Positions 4,562-43,030 of a stretch of DNA of 64,000 nucleotides are shown here, in pieces. Source of the DNA: Chloroflexota bacterium (GTDB taxonomy: Bacteria; Chloroflexota; Anaerolineae; UBA2200); contig JACIWX010000003.1 of the NCBI GenBank assembly GCA_014360755.1, positions 283,678 to 347,677 of the forward strand, written 5' to 3'. The notes under the pieces were generated by a model, which made no database searches, was not told the DNA's origin, and was given only the letters and a program-made list of their open reading frames with translations. How positions within the stretch are numbered: position 1 is the stretch's first letter; every line of letters begins with the position of its first letter. The translations under genes were made by a program, and so were the position numbers.

Positions 4562-7009
4562 ATGATGGACGATTGGGAACTTGGACCATTTCCAACCAAG
4601 CTCTTGTTAGATGATAGCATGGAACCAGAAGCGTTGCCCTTGCTGCCCGTACGGGATACCGTGCTGTTTCCCTATGTGGCAGCACCTCTCTTTATCAGCC
4701 GCGACCGCTCCATGAAAGCGGTGGAAGCAGCAGTATCTGGCGACCAGCGCATTGCCGTTTTCACCCAGCGAGATCCCGAGGTGCAGGATCCCGGCATTGA
4801 CGATCTTTACGAGTTTGGAACAGAGGCAGTGATCGGCCGTGTCTGGCGTATGCCGGACCAAACAACGAGCGTTTTTGTCCATGGGCGAAGACGCTTGCGC
4901 CTTTTGAATCTGGTCAAGACGGAGCCGTATCTGGTCGCGCAGGTGCAACCGGTGGTTAAGAATGTGGAACCTTCCATCACTGCCGAGGCACGCATGCGCG
5001 CCGTGTTGACTCTGTTCGAGAAGGTAGTGCGGTTGAGCCGTAATATCCCGGATGATGCTTTTGTCATGGCCATGAACGTCAATGATCCCAACTGGCTGGC
5101 TGACTTGGTGGCTTCCAACCTTAATCTGGATGTGGCGACCCGGCAGGAGCTCTTGGAGATCGTTGATCCATTGGCAAGACTGGAGAAAATCAGTGTGCTG
5201 CTGGCGAAGGAACTGGATGTGCTAGAGCTGGAGAGCCGCATCCATTCGCAAGTGCAGCAAGAGGTGGACAAGAGCCAGCGCGAATATTTCCTGCGTGAGC
5301 AGATGCGGGTTATCCAGAGCGAGTTGGGCGAGACGGATCCTTTGGCGCGTGAGATCAACGAATTGCAAGAGAGGATCGCGGCAGCCAAAATGCCCGACGA
5401 AGTCCGCGAGAGGGCAGAAAAGGAGCTGGGCCGCCTGGCAAGTATGCCCTCTGTCGCTCCAGAAGCGAGCATTATCCGCACCTACATTGACTGGTTGCTT
5501 GATCTGCCTTGGAGTGAATGTACGGAAGATAACCTGGATATTGCCCATGTCAGCAAGGTGCTTAATAAAAATCATTACGGATTGAATAAAGCCAAAGAGC
5601 GCATCTTGGAGTATATCGCTGTGCGCAAGCTCGCCCCGGAGAAGATGGGCACGACCATTCTGTGCTTCGTAGGGCCACCGGGAACGGGCAAAACCTCCCT
5701 GGGCAAGTCCATTGCCGAAGCACTGGGGCGCAATTTCGTGCGGGTGAGCCTGGGTGGAATCCGCGATGAAGCGGAGATCCGTGGCCACCGTCGTACCTAC
5801 ATCGGCGCACTGCCAGGCCGCATCATACAAACCATGCGCCGCGCAGGCACCATCAACCCTGTTTTCATGTTGGACGAAATAGACAAGTTGGGGGTTGATT
5901 TCCGTGGCGACCCTTCAGCGGCGCTGCTGGAAGTCCTGGACCCAGAGCAGAATTACGCTTTCTCCGATCACTACCTGGAAGTGCCCTACAACCTATCCAA
6001 AGTGATGTTCATTACCACGGCGAACATCCTCGATCCCATCCCACCTGCTTTGCGCGACCGCCTGGAAGTGATTGAATTTCCAGGGTATATCGAAGAGGAG
6101 AAAATTGAGATTGCCAGGCAGTTCCTCGTGCCGCGCCAGCTTGAGCAACACGGATTAACGGGCCTTCATTTCCCTCGCGAGACGCTGCGGCGCATTATTC
6201 GGGAATACACTTTCGAGGCTGGCGTGCGCAATCTTGAACGTGGGATTGCGACCATCTGCCGCAAAGTGACACGGCGCGTCGCCGAAGGCAAACAGCCACC
6301 GCGCTATATTCTGCCCCAGAGCCTGCACAAATATCTAGGCCCACCGGAGTTTCTCTTTAGCGAGGCGGAGAAAGCAGACGAAGTAGGCGTGGCCACTGGC
6401 CTTTCCTGGACGGAAGCGGGGGGAGATACCATGGCTATCGAAGTAACCGTGATGCCTGGCAAAGGCAACCTCCTGCTTACTGGCCAGTTGGGAGAAGTGA
6501 TGCAGGAATCTGCCCAGGCAGCCTTGAGTTACGCGCGGGCACATGCCCAGGAATTGGGCATCAAAAACGTTGACTTTGACAAAGTGGATATCCACGTCCA
6601 TGTGCCTGAAGGCGCCATCCCTAAAGACGGTCCATCTGCCGGCATCACCATCGCTATAGCGATGATCTCAGCCCTAACGCGGCGGCCAGTCCACCGTGAA
6701 GTCGCCATGACCGGCGAGATCACCCTGCGGGGCCATGTGCTGCCCATCGGTGGCCTAAGGGAGAAGGTGCTCGCTGCCTATCGCGCGGGATTGAAGACCG
6801 TGCTCCTGCCTAAGAAGAATCGCAAAGACCTGGTGGATATCCCGCGCAAAGTACAACGAGGGCTTAACTTTGTCTTTGTAGAACATATGGAAGAGGTGGT
6901 GCCGATCGCATTGGTATCTCCTGAGCAGAAGCAAAAGCGAAAACAGGCTCCTTCAGCCAAGAATAGGCGGAGTGTGGAAAGACATGAACAAGGGATTAAA
7001 CCATCGTAA
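4562..7009 (+). CDS. lon: ATP-dependent Lon protease (LonA)
   Basis: Lon N-domain ([13 protein letters not shown]), AAA+ Walker A (GPPGTGKTS) and protease Ser motif (DGPSAGIT). ATG at 4562 is preferred over the TTG ORF start at 4556; GGAGG lies at 4546-4550. Confidence 0.9.
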
Positions 7010-8084: not shown

Positions 8085-8644
8085 CTTGCCCCACAGTAAG
8101 AGGTAGCCTCGTAGAAGCAAAGCAACGTACTGCCGTATTTGCGCTGATCGGTTAGGATCAGTTGGCGCAGTTCCAGTGGTTCGTATTCTTTGGGGTGAAT
8201 CTGAGCGATCACCAGCGTTCCCGGTATCAGCAACGTGGAACCATCCAATGCACGGAGGGTTTTCGCCCAGAGACCTTGGTATTGAGGCGGAGCAACATAG
8301 ATGATGTCAAAAGGCTCGCCTTCATAACCAGCGATGAATTTGAATACATCACGACGCACCACCTGGGCGCGACTGGCCAATTGCGTGGTGCTCAGATTGC
8401 GGCGAAGGGTAGCTAGGGCGCGTTCATCGCGCTCTACAAAAATTGCCTTATGGGCTCCACGGCTCAGTGCTTCAATACCTACTCCGCCTGTGCCGGCGAA
8501 TAAATCGAGAAATCGCGCCCCTTGTACGCGCCCTGCCAGGATATCGAACAGGGCCTCTTTCACCCTATCCGTGATAGGGCGTGTAGTTTGTCCCGGCACA
8601 GAGAAAAGCCGTCGGCCCTTCGCCTCTCCCCCGATGACTCTCAT
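8066..8644 (-). CDS. rsmD: 16S rRNA (guanine966-N2)-methyltransferase RsmD
   Basis: MRVIGGEAKGRRL...LDLFAGTGGVGIEALSRGA...VYVAPPQY are RsmD family motifs. Confidence 0.8.
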   Translation of the reverse strand: MRVIGGEAKGRRLFSVPGQTTRPITDRVKEALFDILAGRVQGARFLDLFAGTGGVGIEALSRGAHKAIFVERDERALATLRRNLSTTQLASRAQVVRRDVFKFIAGYEGEPFDIIYVAPPQYQGLWAKTLRALDGSTLLIPGTLVIAQIHPKEYEPLELRQLILTDQRKYGSTLLCFYEATSYCGASHPGSA

Positions 8645-16537: not shown

Positions 16538-16760
16538 GAGAGTGTGGAAAATCTTGTTACCCTGAGTGAAGCGAAGAGCCTGCCCTGAGTGCAACGAAGG
16601 GGTCTCGCGTAACTTTCGTATTTTCCCGAGTACTGCGAGATGCTTCGCTTTCCCTTCGCTTTCCCTTCGCTTTCCCTTCGCTTCGCTCAGGGCAAGGCTC
16701 AAGGCAAGGCTCAGGGCGAAGGTTCAGCATGACATTGGAAGGGCTTTTTTCAACACCTTC
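16538..16760 (-). mobile_element. MITE-like element, copy 1 (reverse orientation relative to copies 2 and 3) with internal microsatellite expansion
   Basis: Bounded by 14-bp terminal inverted repeats GAGAGTGTGGAAAA ... TTTTCAACACCTTC and flanked by direct repeats CTATTAT(G) at 16531-16537 and 16761-16767. About 85% identical to the reverse complement of copies 2 and 3. Internal tandem repeats: CTTTCCCTTCG x3 at 16648-16680 and CAAGGCTCA x~3. Confidence 0.7.
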
Positions 16761-18900: not shown

Positions 18901-20700
18901 TTAGACGTTCTTCTTTTCCTCGACCGCCTTCAGCGCCATAGCGATGAATTCCTCTAACGGTTTGGGACCCAGGTTCTCCTCGCTGCGCAGGCGCACGGAC
19001 ACTGTCCCGTCCTGAACCTCCTTATCACCCACGATCAGCATATACGGGATTTTCTGCAATTGCGCCTTGCGCACTTTGGCGTTCATGCGTTCCTCGCTGT
19101 CGTCTACCTCAGCGCGGAGCCCGGCTTCCTTCAGGCGCTGGAGCACCTGGCGTGCATATTCGTTGTGGCGGTCAGCGATGGGGATGATTTCTACCTGGAC
19201 AGGCGATAGCCACACCGGAAAAGCGCCGGCATAGTGCTCAATCAGACCGCCCACGAAGCGCTCCATGCTGCCCAACACAGTGCGATGCACCATTACCGGA
19301 CGGTGCTCCTTGCCATCCACACCGACAAACGTGAGGTCGAAACGCTCTGGGAAATTGAAATCCACTTGGATGGTGGGACCTTGCCAGCCGCGCCCCAACG
19401 CATCGCGCATTTTGATGTCAATGGCTGGGCCGTAGAACTTGGCTTCTCCTGGCATGACCTTGTACTCGATTTGGCGCTGCTTAAGTGCTTCTTCCAGTGC
19501 GGATTCAGCCGTCTCCCACACAGCATCTTCCCCGATGTACTTCGCCTTGTTCGCAGGGTCGCGCACGGACAGTTCCACGTCGAATTGCTCGTAGCCAAAC
19601 GTGCGCAGCATGAAGAAGGCGAGGTCCAGCACCCCAACGATTTCGTCCATGAGCTGGTCGGGGCGACAGAAGATATGGGCATCGTCTTGCGTGAAGCCGC
19701 GCACGCGCAACATGCCATGCAGCACGCCGCTCCGCTCGTAGCGGTAGACTGTACCTAATTCTGCCCAACGCAGCGGGAGATCGCGATAAGAGCGCGTCCG
19801 CGTCTTGTACATCAGCACGGCGAAGGGGCAGTTCATCGGCTTGAGCAAGTATTCTACCCCATCAATGTTAATCGGTGAGTACATCATGTCGCGGTAAAAA
19901 TCCCAATGGCCGCTGATCTTCCACAGGTCCAGCCTGCCAATATGTGGACTGTAGACGATATCGTAGCCGCGCTTGCGGTGCTCCTGCCGCCAGAAGTTTT
20001 CGATGATCTCGCGGATGAGCGCCCCTTTGGGATGCCAATAGACCAGCCCGGCGCCGCCGATTTCATGCGTGCTGAACAAGTCCAGTTCGCGCCCCAGCTT
20101 GCGGTGGTCACGTCGCTCGATTTCGGCTAACTTGTGTAAGTATGCTTCGAGTTGCTCGCGGGTAGGCCATACCGTCCCATAGATCCGTTGCAGCATGGGA
20201 CGGTGCTCATCACCACGCCAGTAGGCGCCCGCCACATTGAGCAGCTTCAAACCCTCTGGGTTGATCTCGCGCGTATTGGACACATGGGGACCACGACAGA
20301 GGTCAACGAATGAGCCATGTTTGTAGATGCTCAGTTTGGGCGGCCCTTCTGCGGCCTCGCCGTATTCGTCCTTGCCGCCAGCCAGGATGTCCTGAATCAG
20401 CTCCAGTTTATAGGGCTGGTCGGCAAAGATCTCCCGTGCCTCTGCTTCGGAGACCTCGCGGTACTCAAAGGGGTGATCCTCTTGCACAATCTGCTTCATA
20501 CGCGCCTCGATCTCCTGCAAATCCTCGGGAGTCAAAGGGCGAGGCAAATCAAAATCGTAATAGAACCCCTCTTCGATTGCCGGCCCAATGGCCAGTTTGC
20601 CCTCAGGGAACTTTTCTAGCACCGCCTGGGCCATGACATGGGCGGCAGAGTGCCTTAACTTGTGCAAGAATTCCTCGTTTTGATCGTGTTCTTTAGACAT
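18901..20700 (-). CDS. thrS: threonyl-tRNA synthetase
   Basis: Class II aaRS and ThrRS motifs (HRDLKP..., GGAGLVYWHPKG). The true start is ATG at 20700-20698 (MSKEHDQNEEF...). The 60 upstream codons of the ORF-track call lie inside the T-box leader. Confidence 0.9.
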   Translation of the reverse strand: MSKEHDQNEEFLHKLRHSAAHVMAQAVLEKFPEGKLAIGPAIEEGFYYDFDLPRPLTPEDLQEIEARMKQIVQEDHPFEYREVSEAEAREIFADQPYKLELIQDILAGGKDEYGEAAEGPPKLSIYKHGSFVDLCRGPHVSNTREINPEGLKLLNVAGAYWRGDEHRPMLQRIYGTVWPTREQLEAYLHKLAEIERRDHRKLGRELDLFSTHEIGGAGLVYWHPKGALIREIIENFWRQEHRKRGYDIVYSPHIGRLDLWKISGHWDFYRDMMYSPINIDGVEYLLKPMNCPFAVLMYKTRTRSYRDLPLRWAELGTVYRYERSGVLHGMLRVRGFTQDDAHIFCRPDQLMDEIVGVLDLAFFMLRTFGYEQFDVELSVRDPANKAKYIGEDAVWETAESALEEALKQRQIEYKVMPGEAKFYGPAIDIKMRDALGRGWQGPTIQVDFNFPERFDLTFVGVDGKEHRPVMVHRTVLGSMERFVGGLIEHYAGAFPVWLSPVQVEIIPIADRHNEYARQVLQRLKEAGLRAEVDDSEERMNAKVRKAQLQKIPYMLIVGDKEVQDGTVSVRLRSEENLGPKPLEEFIAMALKAVEEKKNV

Positions 20701-21035
20701 ATTTCTTCTCCTTATCATACCAGCAATCAGTGGGTAGCGCGCCTTAACAAAAAACCCTCTCACCCAAGGGGCGAGAGGGGACTCACGCGGTTCCACCCAA
20801 TTTCGACAACCAGGTTTGGTTGTCCTCCTTATGGCCGATAACGGGTGCCTCCGGGGCTCCATACTCTGCTCAGCCTGCATTTCCGGAGCCGGCTCTCAGG
20901 TGGTTTTCGCTGGGCTCCCGTTGAGAAGGCTCGCAGTCTATGACCTTCCCTCCCTGGAACGGCTCCTCCAGCTACTCGTCCTGATCACAGCCGATAAACA
21001 AAACCCACGGACGTACCGTGGGCTTCGTCGCCTTT
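20701..21035 (-). promoter_or_regulatory. T-box riboswitch leader of thrS (specifier ACC, Thr)
   Basis: On the minus strand: stem-I GAGTAG element; specifier loop GCGAAAACCACC (GAA-ACC-A, Thr codon); T-box sequence AAATTGGGTGGAACCGCG at 20805-20788; intrinsic terminator CCCTCTCGCCC-CTT-GGGTGAGAGGG followed by TTTTTTGTT at about 20783-20746. Confidence 0.75.
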
Positions 21036-21041
21036 GTGAAA

Positions 21042-21071
21042 TAATATACCACAAAATCTCAATTTTGGCAA
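21042..21071 (-). promoter_or_regulatory. putative sigma70 promoter of the thrS T-box leader
   Basis: Minus-strand TTGCCA (complement of 21066-21071), a 17-18-bp spacer, then TGgTATATT (complement of 21042-21050). Confidence 0.4.
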
Positions 21072-21130
21072 ACAAGCGAAAGCCTTCGGGTGTAGTTCAG
21101 TTTGGGGGCAGAATATGGATAAGCGTGGAC

Positions 21131-21547
21131 GGCGGACTGTGCTCCGCCTGGAGCAGGATGGATTAGACCTGTCAGGTCTGTTTAAGATCCCTGGAGCGTG
21201 GACGGCGGCGTTTGCCATTGAGCCTGCCAGGGATTGAAATCCCTGGCTGAAACAGCAAGCCCCCTGAAGGGGGCTGCAGCCAATCACCAGTCGGCTTTAG
21301 CCGACTTGCACGTTTCAGCCAGGGAATTGATTCCCTGGCGGCATCTGGGCCTGGGCTCCCATGCCCAGGCGAGGTGGTCTCCTGTGTTACCCTGAGGCGA
21401 AGCCGAGGGGTCTCATGGAACTGAGGGAGATTCTGAGCCGCTACGCGGCTCAGAATGACAATGGGAGAGCAGTTGCTCTCATGTTTGGCGTGGACAGCGG
21501 GTGATCTACCTGGAGCAGTCTCACGCTCGGCGTGGACCACAGTCCAC
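21131..21547. repeat. dense array of perfect palindromes / nested inverted repeats (unclassified structured element)
   Basis: At least ten perfect palindromes with 1-6-bp centres: 21131-21148 GGCGGA..TCCGCC; 21165-21179 AGACCTGTCAGGTCT; 21227-21246 CCAGGGATTGAAATCCCTGG; 21259-21274 GCCCCCTGAAGGGGGC; 21289-21306 AGTCGGCTTTAGCCGACT; 21319-21338 CCAGGGAATTGATTCCCTGG; 21349-21370 GCCTGGGC..GCCCAGGC; 21433-21453 CTGAGCCGCTACGCGGCTCAG; 21465-21480 GAGAGCAGTTGCTCTC; 21532-21547 GTGGAC..GTCCAC. Direct repeat GCGTGGACGGCGG at 21122-21134 and 21196-21208. A 27-bp imperfect inverted repeat (21227-21253 versus 21312-21338) encloses two of the hairpins. No credible ORF. Confidence 0.6.
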
Positions 21548-21718
21548 GCTGGGTATCAGATAGCCCCGTCTACTTGAGGAGCGAATCCGTTCCATCCGTT
21601 CCCCAAATCTGCTGACAGTGATTGTTCTTGGCCAGACTTGGCTGCTTTTCATCCGCCTGGGGCTGTGCAAGGCATTTCTTGCCCCAAAAGTGAACTACAC
21701 CCCAAGCGCACGCAGCAC

Positions 21719-21746
21719 TTGACTTTTGATTGAAATTGCTTAAAAT
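21719..21746 (+). promoter_or_regulatory. sigma70-type promoter for the tRNA-Leu/tRNA-Gly transcription unit
   Basis: TTGACT (21719-21724), 16-bp spacer, TAAAAT (21741-21746). The tRNA 5' end lies about 18 nt downstream. Confidence 0.5.
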
Positions 21747-21763
21747 GAAAAGCGCGCCGGCGT

Positions 21764-21844
21764 GGGGAAGTGTCGGAATGGTAGACGAGCGTGACTTAGG
21801 ATCACGTGGAGCAATCCGTGAGAGTTCGAGTCTCTCCTTCCCCA
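21764..21844 (+). tRNA. tRNA-Leu (anticodon TAG), class II with long variable arm
   Basis: Manual fold: acceptor GGGGAAG/CTTCCCC, D-arm TCG-GAATGGTAGA-CGA, anticodon stem CGTGA/TCACG with loop CTTAGGA, variable stem GGA/TCC, T-arm GAGAG-TTCGAGT-CTCTC, discriminator A. CCA is not encoded. Confidence 0.9.
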
Positions 21845-21861
21845 TCAGGTTAGGTGAAAAA

Positions 21862-21933
21862 GCGGAAGTGGCTCAGCGGTAGAGCATCTCCTTGCCAAGG
21901 AGAGGGCCGCGGGTTCGAATCCCGTCTTCCGCT
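21862..21933 (+). tRNA. tRNA-Gly (anticodon GCC)
   Basis: Acceptor GCGGAAG/CTTCCGC, D-arm GCTC-AGCGGTAG-AGC, anticodon stem TCTCC/GGAGA with loop TTGCCAA, T-arm GCGGG-TTCGAAT-CCCGT, discriminator T. Confidence 0.9.
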
Positions 21934-22020
21934 CCTTATGGAGAATGCTGGTTCGCATGAACCAGCATTCTCTGTATGCCTCAGGCAGGGAACTCTCCTA
22001 CCTGAGTTGATTCATCATAA

Positions 22021-23412
22021 ATGGAGGCCATATACTCGTTGAATATTCAGAAAGAAAAGACCGGCCCGTGCGAATACACGCTCACGATCGAGGTGGAACC
22101 AGAGCGTCTACAAAAACCGCTGCGCGAAGCGGCACAGCGCTTGAACCGACGCCGTCCGATACCTGGTTTCCGCCCCGGTAAAGCACCTTACGCCATGGCC
22201 GAACGCATTTACGGTAAGGATTTGATTTATGAAGAAATGCTGTACCAGGTAGGCAACGAGTGGTATCAGGAGGCTCTTGAACAGAGCCAACTCGAGCCCT
22301 ACGCACAAGGGCAAATGGAAATCGTACAATTGGAACCGCTCACGCTCAAGATCAGCGTGCCTGTGCAACCAGAAGTCACTCTTGGCGACTACCACAGCAT
22401 ACGCGTGGAGCCAAAGGCGGTAGAGGTGCAACCGGCTGAAATAGACGAAGCACTGGCTCAGATTCAGGAGAGCCATGCCATTTGGGTACCGGTTGAGCAC
22501 GCAGTTGTCACGGGCAACCAAGTGCTGATTGATGCCATAGGAACGACCGCTGATGGCAAGCCAGTAGAGCAAAAAGACCTGACCTTGGAGGTCAGCGAGG
22601 ACATCACGCCATCTGGCTTTGGCCAGAACCTGGTGGGCATGCGACCGGGCGAGAGCAAAGAATTCGATGTGGAATACCCGGCAGATTTTCGCGACCCCAG
22701 CCTGGCTGGCAAGCGCGTCCATTTCCAGGTGACGGTCAAGACGGTAAAAGAAAAAGAACTGCCACCATTGGATGATGCACTGGCACAGAGCGCAGGGTCC
22801 TTTGGGACCTTGGCAGAGCTGCGAACGTACATCGAGCAAGAACTGCGCAAGCGCAAAGAGGAAGAAGCAAGGGACGCTGCGCTAGAAGAGGCGCTGGACG
22901 CTCTGGTCGAACAGGCGACGCTGGAATATCCGACGATTGCCGTTGAGCGTGAGATAGACGCGATGATCAAATCGCGGGCAGACAATCTGATCCAGCAGGG
23001 GTTCACCCTGGAAGGTTATCTGCAGATCATTGGGAAGACATTGCCCCAACTGCGCGCCGAACTGAGGCCTCAGGCTGAGAAGCGCATCAAGCGTGGCCTG
23101 GTACTGAGCAAGTTCGCCGAGGCAGAAGGCATCACAGTAGAAGAACAGGAAATTGACCAGGAAGTGAACCGCCTGTCCGAGCCCTTTGGCCAGCGGGCGG
23201 AAGCAGTGAAAACAGCCCTCAGCGCAGAAAGACCGCTGCGCTCCATAGCCAACGATGTCCGGCGGCGCAAGGCTTTGGAGCGCTTGCTGGCTATTGCCAC
23301 TGGCAGAGGGATGGTGCAGGCAGACAATGAACGAGATCAGAAATCAGCAGAGTTGGCAATGAAAGCTGAGGAAACTGATAATGAAAAGTCACCAACTGGA
23401 GGAGGTGCATGA
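22021..23412 (+). CDS. tig: trigger factor
   Basis: 463 aa. N-terminal ribosome-binding domain, central FKBP-like PPIase region and position directly upstream of clpP-clpX. Confidence 0.85.
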
Positions 23413-39152: not shown

Positions 39153-39163
39153 CCTGCTTGCCA

Positions 39164-39340
39164 GAGGGTGTTGAAAAAGCTCTTCCAATGTCATGCTGAA
39201 CCTTCGCGCTGAGCAAAGCGAAGGGGAAGTGAAGCATCTCCCAGTACTTGGGGAAATACAGCTAAAGTTACGCGAGACCCCTTCGTTGTACTCAGGGCAG
39301 GCTCTTCGCTTCGCTCAGGGAGAAAAGATTTTCAACACTC
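39164..39340 (+). mobile_element. MITE-like element, copy 2
   Basis: TIRs GAGGGTGTTGAAAA ... TTTTCAACACTC. Flanking direct repeats (C)TTGCCA at 39157-39163 and 39341-39346. Internal long imperfect palindrome (CTGAGCAAAGCGAAGG / CTTCGCTTCGCTCAG). Confidence 0.7.
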
Positions 39341-39433
39341 TCTTGCCATTGCTATCCCTCGAAGAATTGTCTTGCCTTTCCATTTTGGCAAGAAGCCACA
39401 ATTTGGTTATAATCTTCACCAGTTTGTGAGAGG

Positions 39434-42601: not shown

Positions 42602-42692
42602 TAGCCCTGTTTGACAATGTCAGCAAGCTGTGGTAAGATTTGCGGCAGCTGCGGTAGTGAAAGATTTCACAATTAGGCACAGTGCAGGGAAT

Positions 42693-42846
42693 GAGAGTGT
42701 TGAAAAAGCCTTTCCAATGTCATGCTGAACGGAGTGAAGCATCTCGCAGTACTTGGGGAAAGAGGCTAAAGTTACGCGAGACCTCTTCGTTGCACTTAGG
42801 GCAGGCTCTTCGCTTCGCTCAAGGTGACAAGATTTTCCACACTCTC
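42693..42846 (+). mobile_element. MITE-like element, copy 3 (shortest), inserted between folD and fhs
   Basis: TIRs GAGAGTGTTGAAAA ... TTTTCCACACTCTC. Perfect 8-bp target-site duplication CAGGGAAT at 42685-42692 and 42846-42853 (C42846 is ambiguous between TIR and TSD). Confidence 0.7.
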
Positions 42847-43030
42847 AGGGAATTCGAGGCATTCAGTGTAATAGGATGCCAGTATTGTAACCCACGCGGG
42901 CGGTTTAGAGGGGTAGTTCCCCTTTGGGTGTTCTTGCCAATCTGAGTTCCGATCAAGCGCAGTTCCTTTATTTCACAATGCGTTTGATTTGTATATTCAA
43001 ATACATGATTGCACAAAGGAGGCAACAAAT

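Follow-up and report, generated by a model that had tools for sequence, protein, structure and literature searches.

Why does a dense array of perfect palindromes lie between the divergent promoters of a threonyl-tRNA synthetase gene (thrS) and a pair of tRNA genes? The question is raised by a 64-kb stretch of DNA from an uncultured Anaerolineae (Chloroflexota) bacterium (hereafter the window, meaning the whole stretch analyzed), in which an initial annotation had described at least ten back-to-back perfect palindromes at 21095-21560. [quoted passage not shown] MITE-1 defines a new family of MITEs from an uncultured Anaerolineae lineage, although as an element it is of a known kind; its mosaic interior is unusually rich in palindromes, and its copies stand at a fixed distance from promoter-like sites.

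A palindrome array bounded by terminal inverted repeats

We first quantified the array by scanning for perfect palindromes with arms of ≥6 nt and centers of ≤6 nt. The interval 21095-21560 holds 11 of these, confirming the earlier count, including nine with arms ≥7 nt (21165-21179, 21226-21247, 21258-21275, 21289-21306, 21318-21339, 21349-21370, 21430-21456, 21465-21480, and 21530-21549). The palindrome rate elsewhere in the window predicts 0.86 (arms ≥6) and 0.25 (arms ≥7) for 466 nt (Poisson P of 2e-9 and 8e-12, respectively). Similarly, the densest 500-nt stretch includes 180 palindrome-covered bases, against ≤40 everywhere outside the array locus, and no further copy of any array unit was found outside the array in the 64-kb window. 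An inverted repeat with arms of about 27 bp enclosing two palindromes, also reported initially, is indeed present at 21226-21253 / 21312-21339, with 28-nt arms that are 89% complementary. GCGTGGACGGCGG occurs in the window as two exact copies, one copy with one mismatch, and one with two mismatches on the opposite strand; four matches alone are not significant (13 of 100 window shuffles reach four), but these copies form part of longer direct repeats of 19–22 nt, and the GCGTGGAC direct repeats were confirmed. A degenerate form of a motif, CCAGGGAWTKRWTCCCTGG, had been written one base short and has zero matches in the window.

The array is itself enclosed by an outer inverted repeat (21084-21117 / 21673-21706; 34 nt, 82% complementary) that the initial annotation had missed, so that while the palindromes do lie within 21095-21560, the real unit spans 21088-21702. 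Its ends are 30-nt terminal inverted repeats (TIRs), namely GGGTGTAGTTCAGTTTGGGGGCAGAATATG on the left (21088-21117, plus strand) and GGGTGTAGTTCACTTTTGGGGCAAGAAATG on the right (21673-21702, minus strand), which are complementary at 25 of 30 positions and constitute the sole TIR pair in the 64 kb.

Copies at unrelated loci with target-site duplications

A metagenome scan with a 23-nt core common to the window and Thermomicrobium roseum (GSAAGCCCCCTGAAGGGGGCTSS) returned 66 loci, eight of which, all from metagenome Ga0315298, are related to the window array; seven of these eight carry a whole-element copy. The copy set thus includes the window and seven further copies of 409–586 bp at unrelated loci (L108, L119, L128, L139, L144, L150, and L154), six of them complete and one lacking the right end. 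The complete copies measure 409, 435, 444, 467, 578, 586, and 615 bp, the window copy being the longest of the eight. In the eight-copy alignment, the core is 85–96% identical while flanks and neighbor genes are unrelated, with copies found next to plsX and next to genes for aldo-keto-reductase-like, AbrB-like membrane, DsbA-like, and SIS-domain-like proteins (family names based on reading of the sequences, PlsX alone being confirmed).

Conservation within MITE-1 is highest in the TIRs. The left TIR is identical in five copies including the window and has one mismatch in two more, and the alignment has invariant ends, GGGTGTAGTTCAGTTTGGGGGCAGAATATGGAT... and ...GCAAGGCATTTCTTGCCCC(N5-6)TGAACTACACCC. 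The outer 12 nt are the same at both ends in all complete copies except L154 (one mismatch, left end). Perfect target-site duplications abut the TIRs in four copies: 9 bp in L119 (CTTACATCA), L139 (CAAGCGCAC), and L150 (TTGTCTGCT), and 8 bp in L128 (ATCCAATT). L144 displays an imperfect duplication (7/9). In the window, the left flank (21079-21087) is a decayed duplication copy of the right flank (21703-21711), the latter being the same 9-mer found on both sides of L139. Transposition by HUH enzymes, as in the IS200/IS605 and RAYT (REP-associated tyrosine transposase) families, leaves no target-site duplication. The 8–9-bp duplications hence point to a DDE-type transposase provided in trans rather than to an HUH/RAYT enzyme, and MITE-1 would have been inserted by such a trans-supplied transposase making 9-bp staggered cuts. 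Duplications of 8–9 bp are made by the IS1, IS256, ISKra4, and IS4/IS903-type families. Prokaryotic MITEs are defined as elements of 50–800 bp with TIRs of at least 10–15 bp and 2–10-bp duplications (PMC11602168); MITE-1 falls within this size range at 409–615 bp, with 30-nt TIRs, 8–9-bp duplications, no coding capacity, and eight copies at unrelated sites.

This structure emerged independently from JGI, ENA, and Logan assemblies of several samples. Short-read contigs from independent samples end 29 nt inside the TIR, both at the thrS site (L081 and L082) and at the plsX site (L163), and Logan contigs with an identical thrS stop at 21116, i.e., 29 nt into the left TIR. The identical thrS occurs in samples SRR28822775, SRR14699989, and SRR11866725. 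Breaks at the repeat, along with inverted repeats flanking a segment, could be read as an invertible DNA switch, its segment being turned over by a recombinase, or as an artefact of assembly or rearrangement, with the palindromes as chimeric assembly products. However, contigs are expected to break at this point because the repeat is multi-copy (k=31 graph behavior), the JGI, ENA, and Logan assemblies agree with each other, and every copy keeps the difference between the two arms at 5 of 30 positions; there is also no promoter inside the element and no recombinase gene nearby, and we therefore give this explanation almost no credence. Finally, one ENA assembly (ERZ27247713) holds both a contig with a 99% thrS (L155) and a plsX copy (L162, on a 133-kb contig), which ties the Ga0315298 copies to the window species, and these copies apparently belong to the same species as the window.

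Modular interior and coding potential

All copies share a core corresponding to 21195-21375 of the window (all interior features being given on the plus strand), which carries palindromes A, B, C, A', and D. The first four make up a REPIN-like composite at 21226-21339, in which palindrome A (21226-21247) is followed by TGAAAC, B (AGCCCCCTGAAGGGGGCT) lies at 21258-21275, C at 21289-21306, and A' (21318-21339) is preceded by GTTTCA; palindrome D (GCCTGGGC-TCCCAT-GCCCAGGC, 21349-21370) stands at the end of the common core. The remainder of the element is variable. The left part (region 21122-21225 of the window) consists of GCGTGGACGGCGG...CCGCCTGGAGCAG sub-repeat units (21122-21164 and 21195-21215) and includes palindrome AGACCTG-T-CAGGTCT (21165-21179), with the number of GCGTGGACGGCGG...GGAGCAG units and of AGACCTG-N-CAGGTCT palindromes varying between copies (alignment columns 34–250). 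To the right, an optional module at 21376-21484, which includes the palindromes at 21430-21456 (12-bp arms) and 21465-21480, is found among the copies only in the window and L108, as well as outside any MITE in contig L133. A second optional module (21485-21665) includes a third GCGTGGAC unit (21488-21518), palindrome GCGTGGAC-CACA-GTCCACGC (21530-21549), and a terminator-like hairpin (21629-21644); it is whole in the window, L139, L144, and L154, while L108 has the first part alone. Since module boundaries coincide with GCGTGGAC/GCGTAGAC sub-repeats, recombination or slippage between these sub-repeats probably generates the variation: GCGTGGAC...GGAGCAG sub-repeats would add or remove modules in this way, yielding copies of 409–615 bp.

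The proposal that the array is non-coding holds, as open reading frames (ORFs) overlapping MITE-1 have no Pfam match at E ≤ 0.1 and modules are gained or lost in lengths not divisible by 3, breaking any reading frame. By contrast, the option of a novel structured non-coding RNA (ncRNA) did not find support. Large structured RNAs such as OLE, GOLLD, and ROOL often adjoin tRNA genes, and an RNA of ~620 nt in this style, with a long terminal helix and many hairpin domains, would be consistent with both the adjacent tRNA genes and the predicted fold: compared to dinucleotide shuffles, the 650-nt unit displays minimum free energy z-scores of -8.2 (plus strand) and -7.5 (minus strand), with the terminal repeat forming a 30-bp closing helix. 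However, the fold is equally good on either strand, and neither within 21088-21702 nor facing into the element was a promoter-like site detected, the flanking promoters being directed outward. A cmscan search (Rfam 15; 20000-22500, both strands, E ≤ 1), one of the checks initially proposed, matched the T-box, the two tRNAs, and a sub-threshold YrlA overlapping the tRNAs, but left the array unmatched, with OLE, GOLLD, ROOL, HEARO, and raiA among the families not matched. The nine window stems with arms ≥7 are perfect Watson-Crick helices, i.e., without wobble pairs, and across copies one of nine non-Watson-Crick positions is G·T and none of nine A·C, so that a test for the functional strand based on G·T versus A·C asymmetry was uninformative, the stems being essentially perfect. 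In addition, whole domains are gained and lost between copies, and the copies lie at unrelated loci with target-site duplications. In L154, the center of palindrome A is inverted (~8720; alignment columns 262–270), reading TTTCAA as opposed to TTGAAA elsewhere (GGGATTTCAATCCC vs GGGATTGAAATCCC), which is an event typical of DNA palindromes. Overall, we consider a structured RNA very improbable.

Insertion at a fixed distance from promoters

We examined the position of MITE-1 relative to promoters by scanning 120 nt of each flank of the oriented complete copies (n = 7, i.e., 14 ends) with an Escherichia coli-type promoter consensus. All seven complete copies displayed an outward sigma-70-type promoter-like site with a -35 hexamer 15–17 nt (mostly 16 nt) from the element end. 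These sites were found at eight of the 14 ends, the window having one at both: on the left at 16 nt (TTGCCA-17-TATATT) and on the right at 16 nt (TTGACT-16-TAAAAT). For the other copies, left-end sites were found 16 nt from L119 (TTGGCA-17-TATAAT) and 16 nt from L150 (TTGACA-17-TACACT), and right-end sites 15 nt from L128 (TTGACA-18-TATAAT), 16 nt from L139 (TTGACT-17-TATAAT), 16 nt from L144 (TTGTCA-17-TAAGAT), and 17 nt from L154 (TTGACA-16-TATACT). A separate promoter-scan tool independently recovered these sites. Only two other outward promoter-like matches were detected in the 14 flanks, both for L154, at 2 and 79 nt. With an intergenic background of 1.3e-3 per position in these contigs, the probability of ≥8 of 14 ends having a promoter at offsets 15–17 is ~1e-16. 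Given that L139 and the window have similar right flanks, and that the two window promoters represent a single event, we also used a stricter count of six independent insertion events, for which P is ~2e-13.

The resulting layout is a 9-bp target, 7 nt, and then the -35 hexamer, in either element orientation, with no consensus in the duplications or in the 7-nt spacers. Since the promoters lie outside the duplications, they are part of the target and not of the element. These points support a target-site effect, as do two others: a real gene follows each promoter, 84–178 nt from the element end and different between copies, and species without MITE-1 have kept the plsX promoter. The fixed spacing suggests a promoter-directed target choice, and we see an even chance that the MITE-1 transposase integrates at a fixed promoter position, with its 9-bp target 7 bp upstream of a sigma-70 -35 box, in either orientation. 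Two mechanisms could be envisioned: the transpososome may read a half-site resembling TTGACA that lies 7 bp from the staggered cut, with insertions beside chance hexamers within genes being purged, or it may dock on RNA polymerase or sigma factor bound at the promoter. For prokaryotic MITEs, a review from 2024 describes only a general intergenic or AT-rich preference (PMC10969869, section 3.3), and MITEAba12 displays 9-bp duplications and an AT-rich preference with no motif (PMC6382973). In limited literature searches, we found no bacterial element with such a -35 spacing rule.

At the window site, the reconstructed pre-insertion sequence (TTGGCAAACAAGCG-[9 bp]-GCAGCACTTGACT) would have had its divergent -35 boxes separated by 23 bp, and the element now occupies a symmetrical position between the two. 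The insertion would have left both core promoters intact while moving them 615 bp further apart, and the regions around -45 to -60 of both promoters would now be composed of duplicated target and TIR sequence.

The thrS–tRNA locus

The features initially described on both sides of the array were confirmed. On the minus strand, thrS (18901-20700) is preceded by a T-box leader (20764-20997; Rfam, 102 bits), for which a consensus scan placed the promoter at 21043-21071 (-35 TTGCCA at 21066-21071, 17 nt, -10 TG-TATATT at 21043-21048). On the plus strand, the same scan placed a promoter at 21719-21746 (TTGACT at 21719, 16 nt, TAAAAT ending at 21746) ahead of tRNA-Leu (21763-21846) and tRNA-Gly (21862-21935), themselves followed by tig, clpP, clpX, and alaS. 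The two promoters are divergent and both face away from the array.

This exact position between two promoters would be expected from a locus-specific DNA device selected in place, either a cruciform or supercoil sink, or a dyad array for a regulator or nucleoid protein as proposed initially. Palindrome centers of 1–4 nt would suit dimeric proteins or cruciform extrusion, and the GCGTGGAC repeats resemble iterated binding sites. Yet the same element is found at six or more unrelated loci, including beside plsX, aldo-keto-reductase-like, DsbA-like, and other genes, and is absent upstream of thrS in 80 GTDB relatives, in relatives at 85–86%, and in the 322 nt available in L155. Specifically, no sequence similar to the array was detected by blastn and nhmmer across the 80 GTDB thrS-relative loci, all from other species, in which palindrome density reached at most 83 covered bases per 500 nt vs 180 in the window. 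The closest GTDB relative of the window threonyl-tRNA synthetase (ThrRS) is from an Anaerolineae metagenome-assembled genome (MAG) with 82% identity, and the adjacency of thrS and tRNA-Leu is not conserved among thrS relatives in GTDB. A device specific to this locus is thus highly doubtful, and nothing we found requires the palindromes to act as a supercoil sink, gyrase site, or insulator, although MITE-1 may have acquired an exapted role after insertion.

The suggestion of a remnant att site or replication origin likewise lacked support, as we found no integrase, replication genes, or direct-repeat att structure, and the neighbors are all housekeeping genes. An integron attC site was rejected by inspection: CTGAAAC (21247-21253) and GTTTCAG (21312-21318) do not fit RYYYAAC/GTTRRRY, and the neighbors are thrS, tRNAs, tig, clpP, and clpX rather than an integrase and a cassette array. 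Inverton, CRISPR-repeat, tRNA-derived, and att-site readings were also dropped on inspection, with no recombinase, direct-repeat array, or integrase.

Two hairpins outside of MITE-1 were noted at this locus. The thrS leader opens with a terminator-like hairpin, CCCACGG-TACGT-CCGTGGG, followed by TTTTGTTT (minus strand; 20998-21036, palindrome 21004-21022). It sits between the thrS promoter and T-box stem I and is kept in L155, as well as in L156 with substitutions; an extra 5' hairpin and U-run ahead of a T-box is an unusual arrangement. Directly 3' of tRNA-Gly, a perfect hairpin with 14-bp arms (GAGAATGCTGGTTC-GCAT-GAACCAGCATTCTC, 21941-21972), the longest palindrome of the window outside MITE-1, lacks a clear T-run and is probably a terminator or processing hairpin of the tRNA operon.

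Origin of the palindromic units

If the palindromes did not arise at this locus, where do they come from? A BLAST search of MITE-1 against plasmids yielded a single 52-nt match, corresponding to window 21226-21277 (palindrome A, linker, and palindrome B), in an unannotated repeat of the T. roseum megaplasmid. The surrounding region (L086 2200-3600; NC_011961, ~147.9–149.3 kb) is an unannotated 1.5-kb intergenic cluster resembling bacterial interspersed mosaic elements (BIMEs), in which GTAG-tagged palindromes TGTAGGGGTCAGGCGGTGCCTGACCC and GGGCGAGGCAGCGCCTCGCCCCTACA alternate, several ~225 nt apart, along with the A+B pair. In T. roseum-like hot-spring contigs, the A+B pair occurs up to five times per contig at ~220-, 440-, and 660-nt intervals, again among GTAG palindromes; hot-spring contig L149 provides an example of longer arrays like the L086 cluster. 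In L133, two intergenic clusters of 780 bp (4860-5640) and 150 bp (8400-8560) lack MITE-1 TIRs and are built of A, B, C, an ATTCT..GCCGC-TAC-GCGGC..AGAAT palindrome, and GCGTGGAC-CACA-GTCCACGC, mixed with GTAG...CTAC palindromes. Di Nocera et al. (2013, PMC3733652) described GTAG-tagged repetitive extragenic palindromic (REP) sequences from Chloroflexi.

Between the window and T. roseum, stem A differs on both sides (GCCAGGGAT/ATCCCTGGC vs GCCCGGGGC/GCCCCGGGC), as it also does in hot-spring contigs carrying the A+B pair. Such two-sided changes of hairpin A between Anaerolineae, L133, and T. roseum could be taken as a sign of the structured RNA considered above; however, they are equally expected for DNA palindromes, e.g., through intrastrand templated correction, and do not single out RNA.

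Units such as AAGCCCCCTGAAGGGGGCT are identical across Anaerolineae, Thermomicrobia, and unrelated metagenome lineages. The palindromes would thus represent a DNA-level repeat currency of the lineage, either captured by the MITE or invading it, and would not have evolved for thrS or tRNA control. Judging from sequence comparison, the MITE-1 interior may be best described as a BIME-like mosaic of lineage-typical palindromic units inside a TIR transposon.

As a side observation, the exact 19–23-nt hairpin (G/C)AAGCCCCCTGAAGGGGGCT was found in 66 metagenome contigs (L089–L154), representing several unrelated hairpin families. It adjoins ACCCAGGCGTRAACGCCTGGGCTAGAGAAAA in one family, in some contigs just upstream of apparent start codons, and CACGGGCCTGAAGGCCCGTGCTA or ACCCGCCCTCAAGGGCGGGCC in others. 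Nearly all hairpins of this type have T-NN-A centers (TGAA, TAAA, TTCA, TCAA). A scan of viral contigs with hairpin B identified one unrelated hairpin cluster.

Could the entire array then be a REP/BIME-type cluster, with REP-like units spread by a RAYT (HUH tyrosine) transposase and an incidental outer inverted repeat? Its units are perfect palindromes of 15–27 bp that occur singly and in other combinations outside the element (L133), their T. roseum counterparts sit among GTAG-tagged palindromes typical of REPs, the A/A' pair with its spacer resembles a doublet of REPs forming a hairpin (REPIN), and the MITE-1 TIR contains GTAG. Against this, four copies have perfect 8–9-bp duplications abutting the TIRs, which HUH transposition would not make, no part of the element is as conserved as the TIRs, and the 64-kb window contains no other copy of the units. 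No RAYT gene was noticed, although no search aimed at one was made. We consider this explanation unlikely for the element as a whole, yet the internal units may have originated in this way. The initial option of a new class of palindromic intergenic repeat was therefore partly borne out: MITE-1 is a dispersed repeat, but more exactly a TIR-bounded MITE making duplications. The argument that palindromes this dense are unlikely to be neutral becomes unneeded, since they travel as the cargo of a mobile element.

Mobility, empty sites, and the search for a transposase

Evidence for recent turnover was sought in closely related sequences. Contig L155, whose ThrRS is 99% identical, aligns with the window up to 21049 (L155 position 323) and then diverges, with no MITE-1 match in the 322 nt available upstream of the thrS leader. 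There, another element starts 13 nt upstream of the thrS -35, with TIR GAGAGTGTTGAAAAAGT followed by an ORF. While the leader is 96.6% identical between the window and L155, similarity is lost just upstream of the thrS -10, and different mobile elements are found upstream of the -35; promoter-upstream DNA appears to turn over far faster than the thrS gene. MITE-1 is also absent upstream of thrS in the 85–86% relatives. At the plsX site, relatives with 93–94% identical PlsX have a 93–97-nt gap between an NTPase (nucleoside triphosphatase) gene and plsX with the orthologous promoter present, compared to 666 nt including MITE-1 between the same genes in L119/L161. MITE-1 is missing from these relatives, in which the divergence of the intergenic DNA precludes defining an empty site to the base. 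Among contigs with ~100% identical PlsX, MITE-1 is present wherever the contig extends that far upstream, L171 stopping at the -35 box.

No candidate for a parent insertion sequence (IS) was obtained by BLAST of the MITE-1 TIR against plasmids, and no match was found for MITE-1 in phages by BLAST or for its TIR in a scan of viral contigs. The initial annotation had held that a clean match to a known IS would overturn its proposals; MITE-1 does prove to be transposon-derived in kind, but these searches gave no match to a catalogued element.

Several points weigh against the interpretation of MITE-1 as a mobile element targeting promoters in this species. No autonomous IS with MITE-1 TIRs was detected in the window and 1.27 Mb of loci (TIR 30-mer, ≤8 mismatches), and no near-identical strain yielded a base-exact empty site; in L155, another IS fills the thrS site and the promoter-upstream sequence has diverged. 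The flanks of the window copy agree at only five of nine positions (AAAGCCTTC/CAAGCGCAC), and L154 displays no duplication. The presence of all copies in one genome is deduced from shared samples and 99–100% identical marker genes, and the promoter association derives from six independent insertion events and matching to an E. coli-type consensus.

A second, unrelated MITE family was also noted, with three copies in the window (~16540-16757, ~39163-39342, and ~42691-42847), TIRs GAGAGTGTTGAAAAAGC... / ...GATTTTCAACACTCTC, and 7-bp duplications CTATTAT, CTTGCCA, and AGGGAAT. It is also found in Ga0315298 contigs and, in the window, does not obey the 15–17-nt promoter spacing. The element upstream of thrS in L155 (1-290) begins with a TIR of this second family followed by an ORF starting MGSERFKPNTNNSFF..., and is a probable full-length parent of the family; a Pfam search with the 66-aa ORF fragment gave no match. 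Separately, L002 (6408-6500 and 6631-6645), which encodes a ThrRS relative (69%), has at 6408 a TIR-like sequence, GGGTGCATTTTAGTTTTGGGGCAAAAGGGG, with eight mismatches to the MITE-1 TIR. A promoter much like the window tRNA promoter (TTGACTTTTTATGATTGCTGACTAAAAT) lies ~25 nt past it, and the contig ends with CTGTCTCTTATACAC, presumably a Nextera adapter left in a public MAG.

Comparison with known elements and significance

Like MITE-1, bacterial MITEs such as Correia/NEMIS, ERIC, RUP, Nezha, Chunjie, and MITEAba12 have TIRs and short duplications, encode nothing, occur in multiple intergenic copies, and are predicted to fold back strongly, and the 9-bp duplication is common to MITEAba12/ISAba12 and MITE-1 (PMC6382973). 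However, MITE-1 is larger (409–615 bp vs 70–300 bp for most bacterial MITEs), many perfect palindromes, arranged as a mosaic, fill its interior in place of one simple core, and it lies at a fixed distance from -35 boxes instead of following the general intergenic or AT-rich preference reviewed for MITEs (PMC10969869). BrickBuilt from Porphyromonas gingivalis also varies in length via internal repeat units and is always intergenic and near genes, but it carries a simple tandem minisatellite of 23 nt and itself acts as a promoter (PMC4596501), whereas MITE-1 has heterogeneous palindromic units, ~36-nt sub-repeats, and no promoter-like site detected inside. REP, BIME, and REPIN sequences (PMC3733652) resemble MITE-1 as mosaics of short perfect palindromes with inverted doublets and spacer (A...A'), and, in T. 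roseum and L133, units related to those of MITE-1 are interspersed with GTAG-tagged palindromes. In contrast to these, MITE-1 has TIRs and 9-bp duplications not produced by HUH/RAYT mobilization, none of its window units has an adjacent GTAG or CGTC tag by inspection, unlike 20–40-bp REPs, and its copy density is low, with one cluster in 64 kb.

The closest parallels to the promoter spacing are eukaryotic. Promoter-directed integration is found for Ty3 at RNA polymerase III start sites, Ty1 upstream of tRNA genes, and Tf1 at RNA polymerase II promoters, all three being long terminal repeat retrotransposons tethered by host transcription factors. MITE-1 shares with these a stereotyped distance upstream of a transcription unit and the sparing of coding sequence, but is a bacterial DNA element for which the reference point is the sigma-70 -35 hexamer.

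Taken together, a striking feature receives a mundane explanation, in which the palindromes are carried by a mobile element rather than having evolved in place. For the annotation of Chloroflexota MAGs, such elements break short-read assemblies and can pass for ncRNAs, given fold z-scores of about -8. MITE-1 also shows that REP/BIME-like palindromic units and a TIR transposon can be combined in one element. If confirmed genome-wide, the 16-nt spacing to the -35 would make MITE-1 one of few bacterial transposons in which target choice is directed by promoters. If true, MITE-1 would be a bacterial counterpart of the promoter-tethered integration of Ty3 and Tf1, using a safe harbor that spares both genes and core promoters, and, if confirmed, its copies would naturally mark which sigma-A promoters are active in a lineage that is uncultured.

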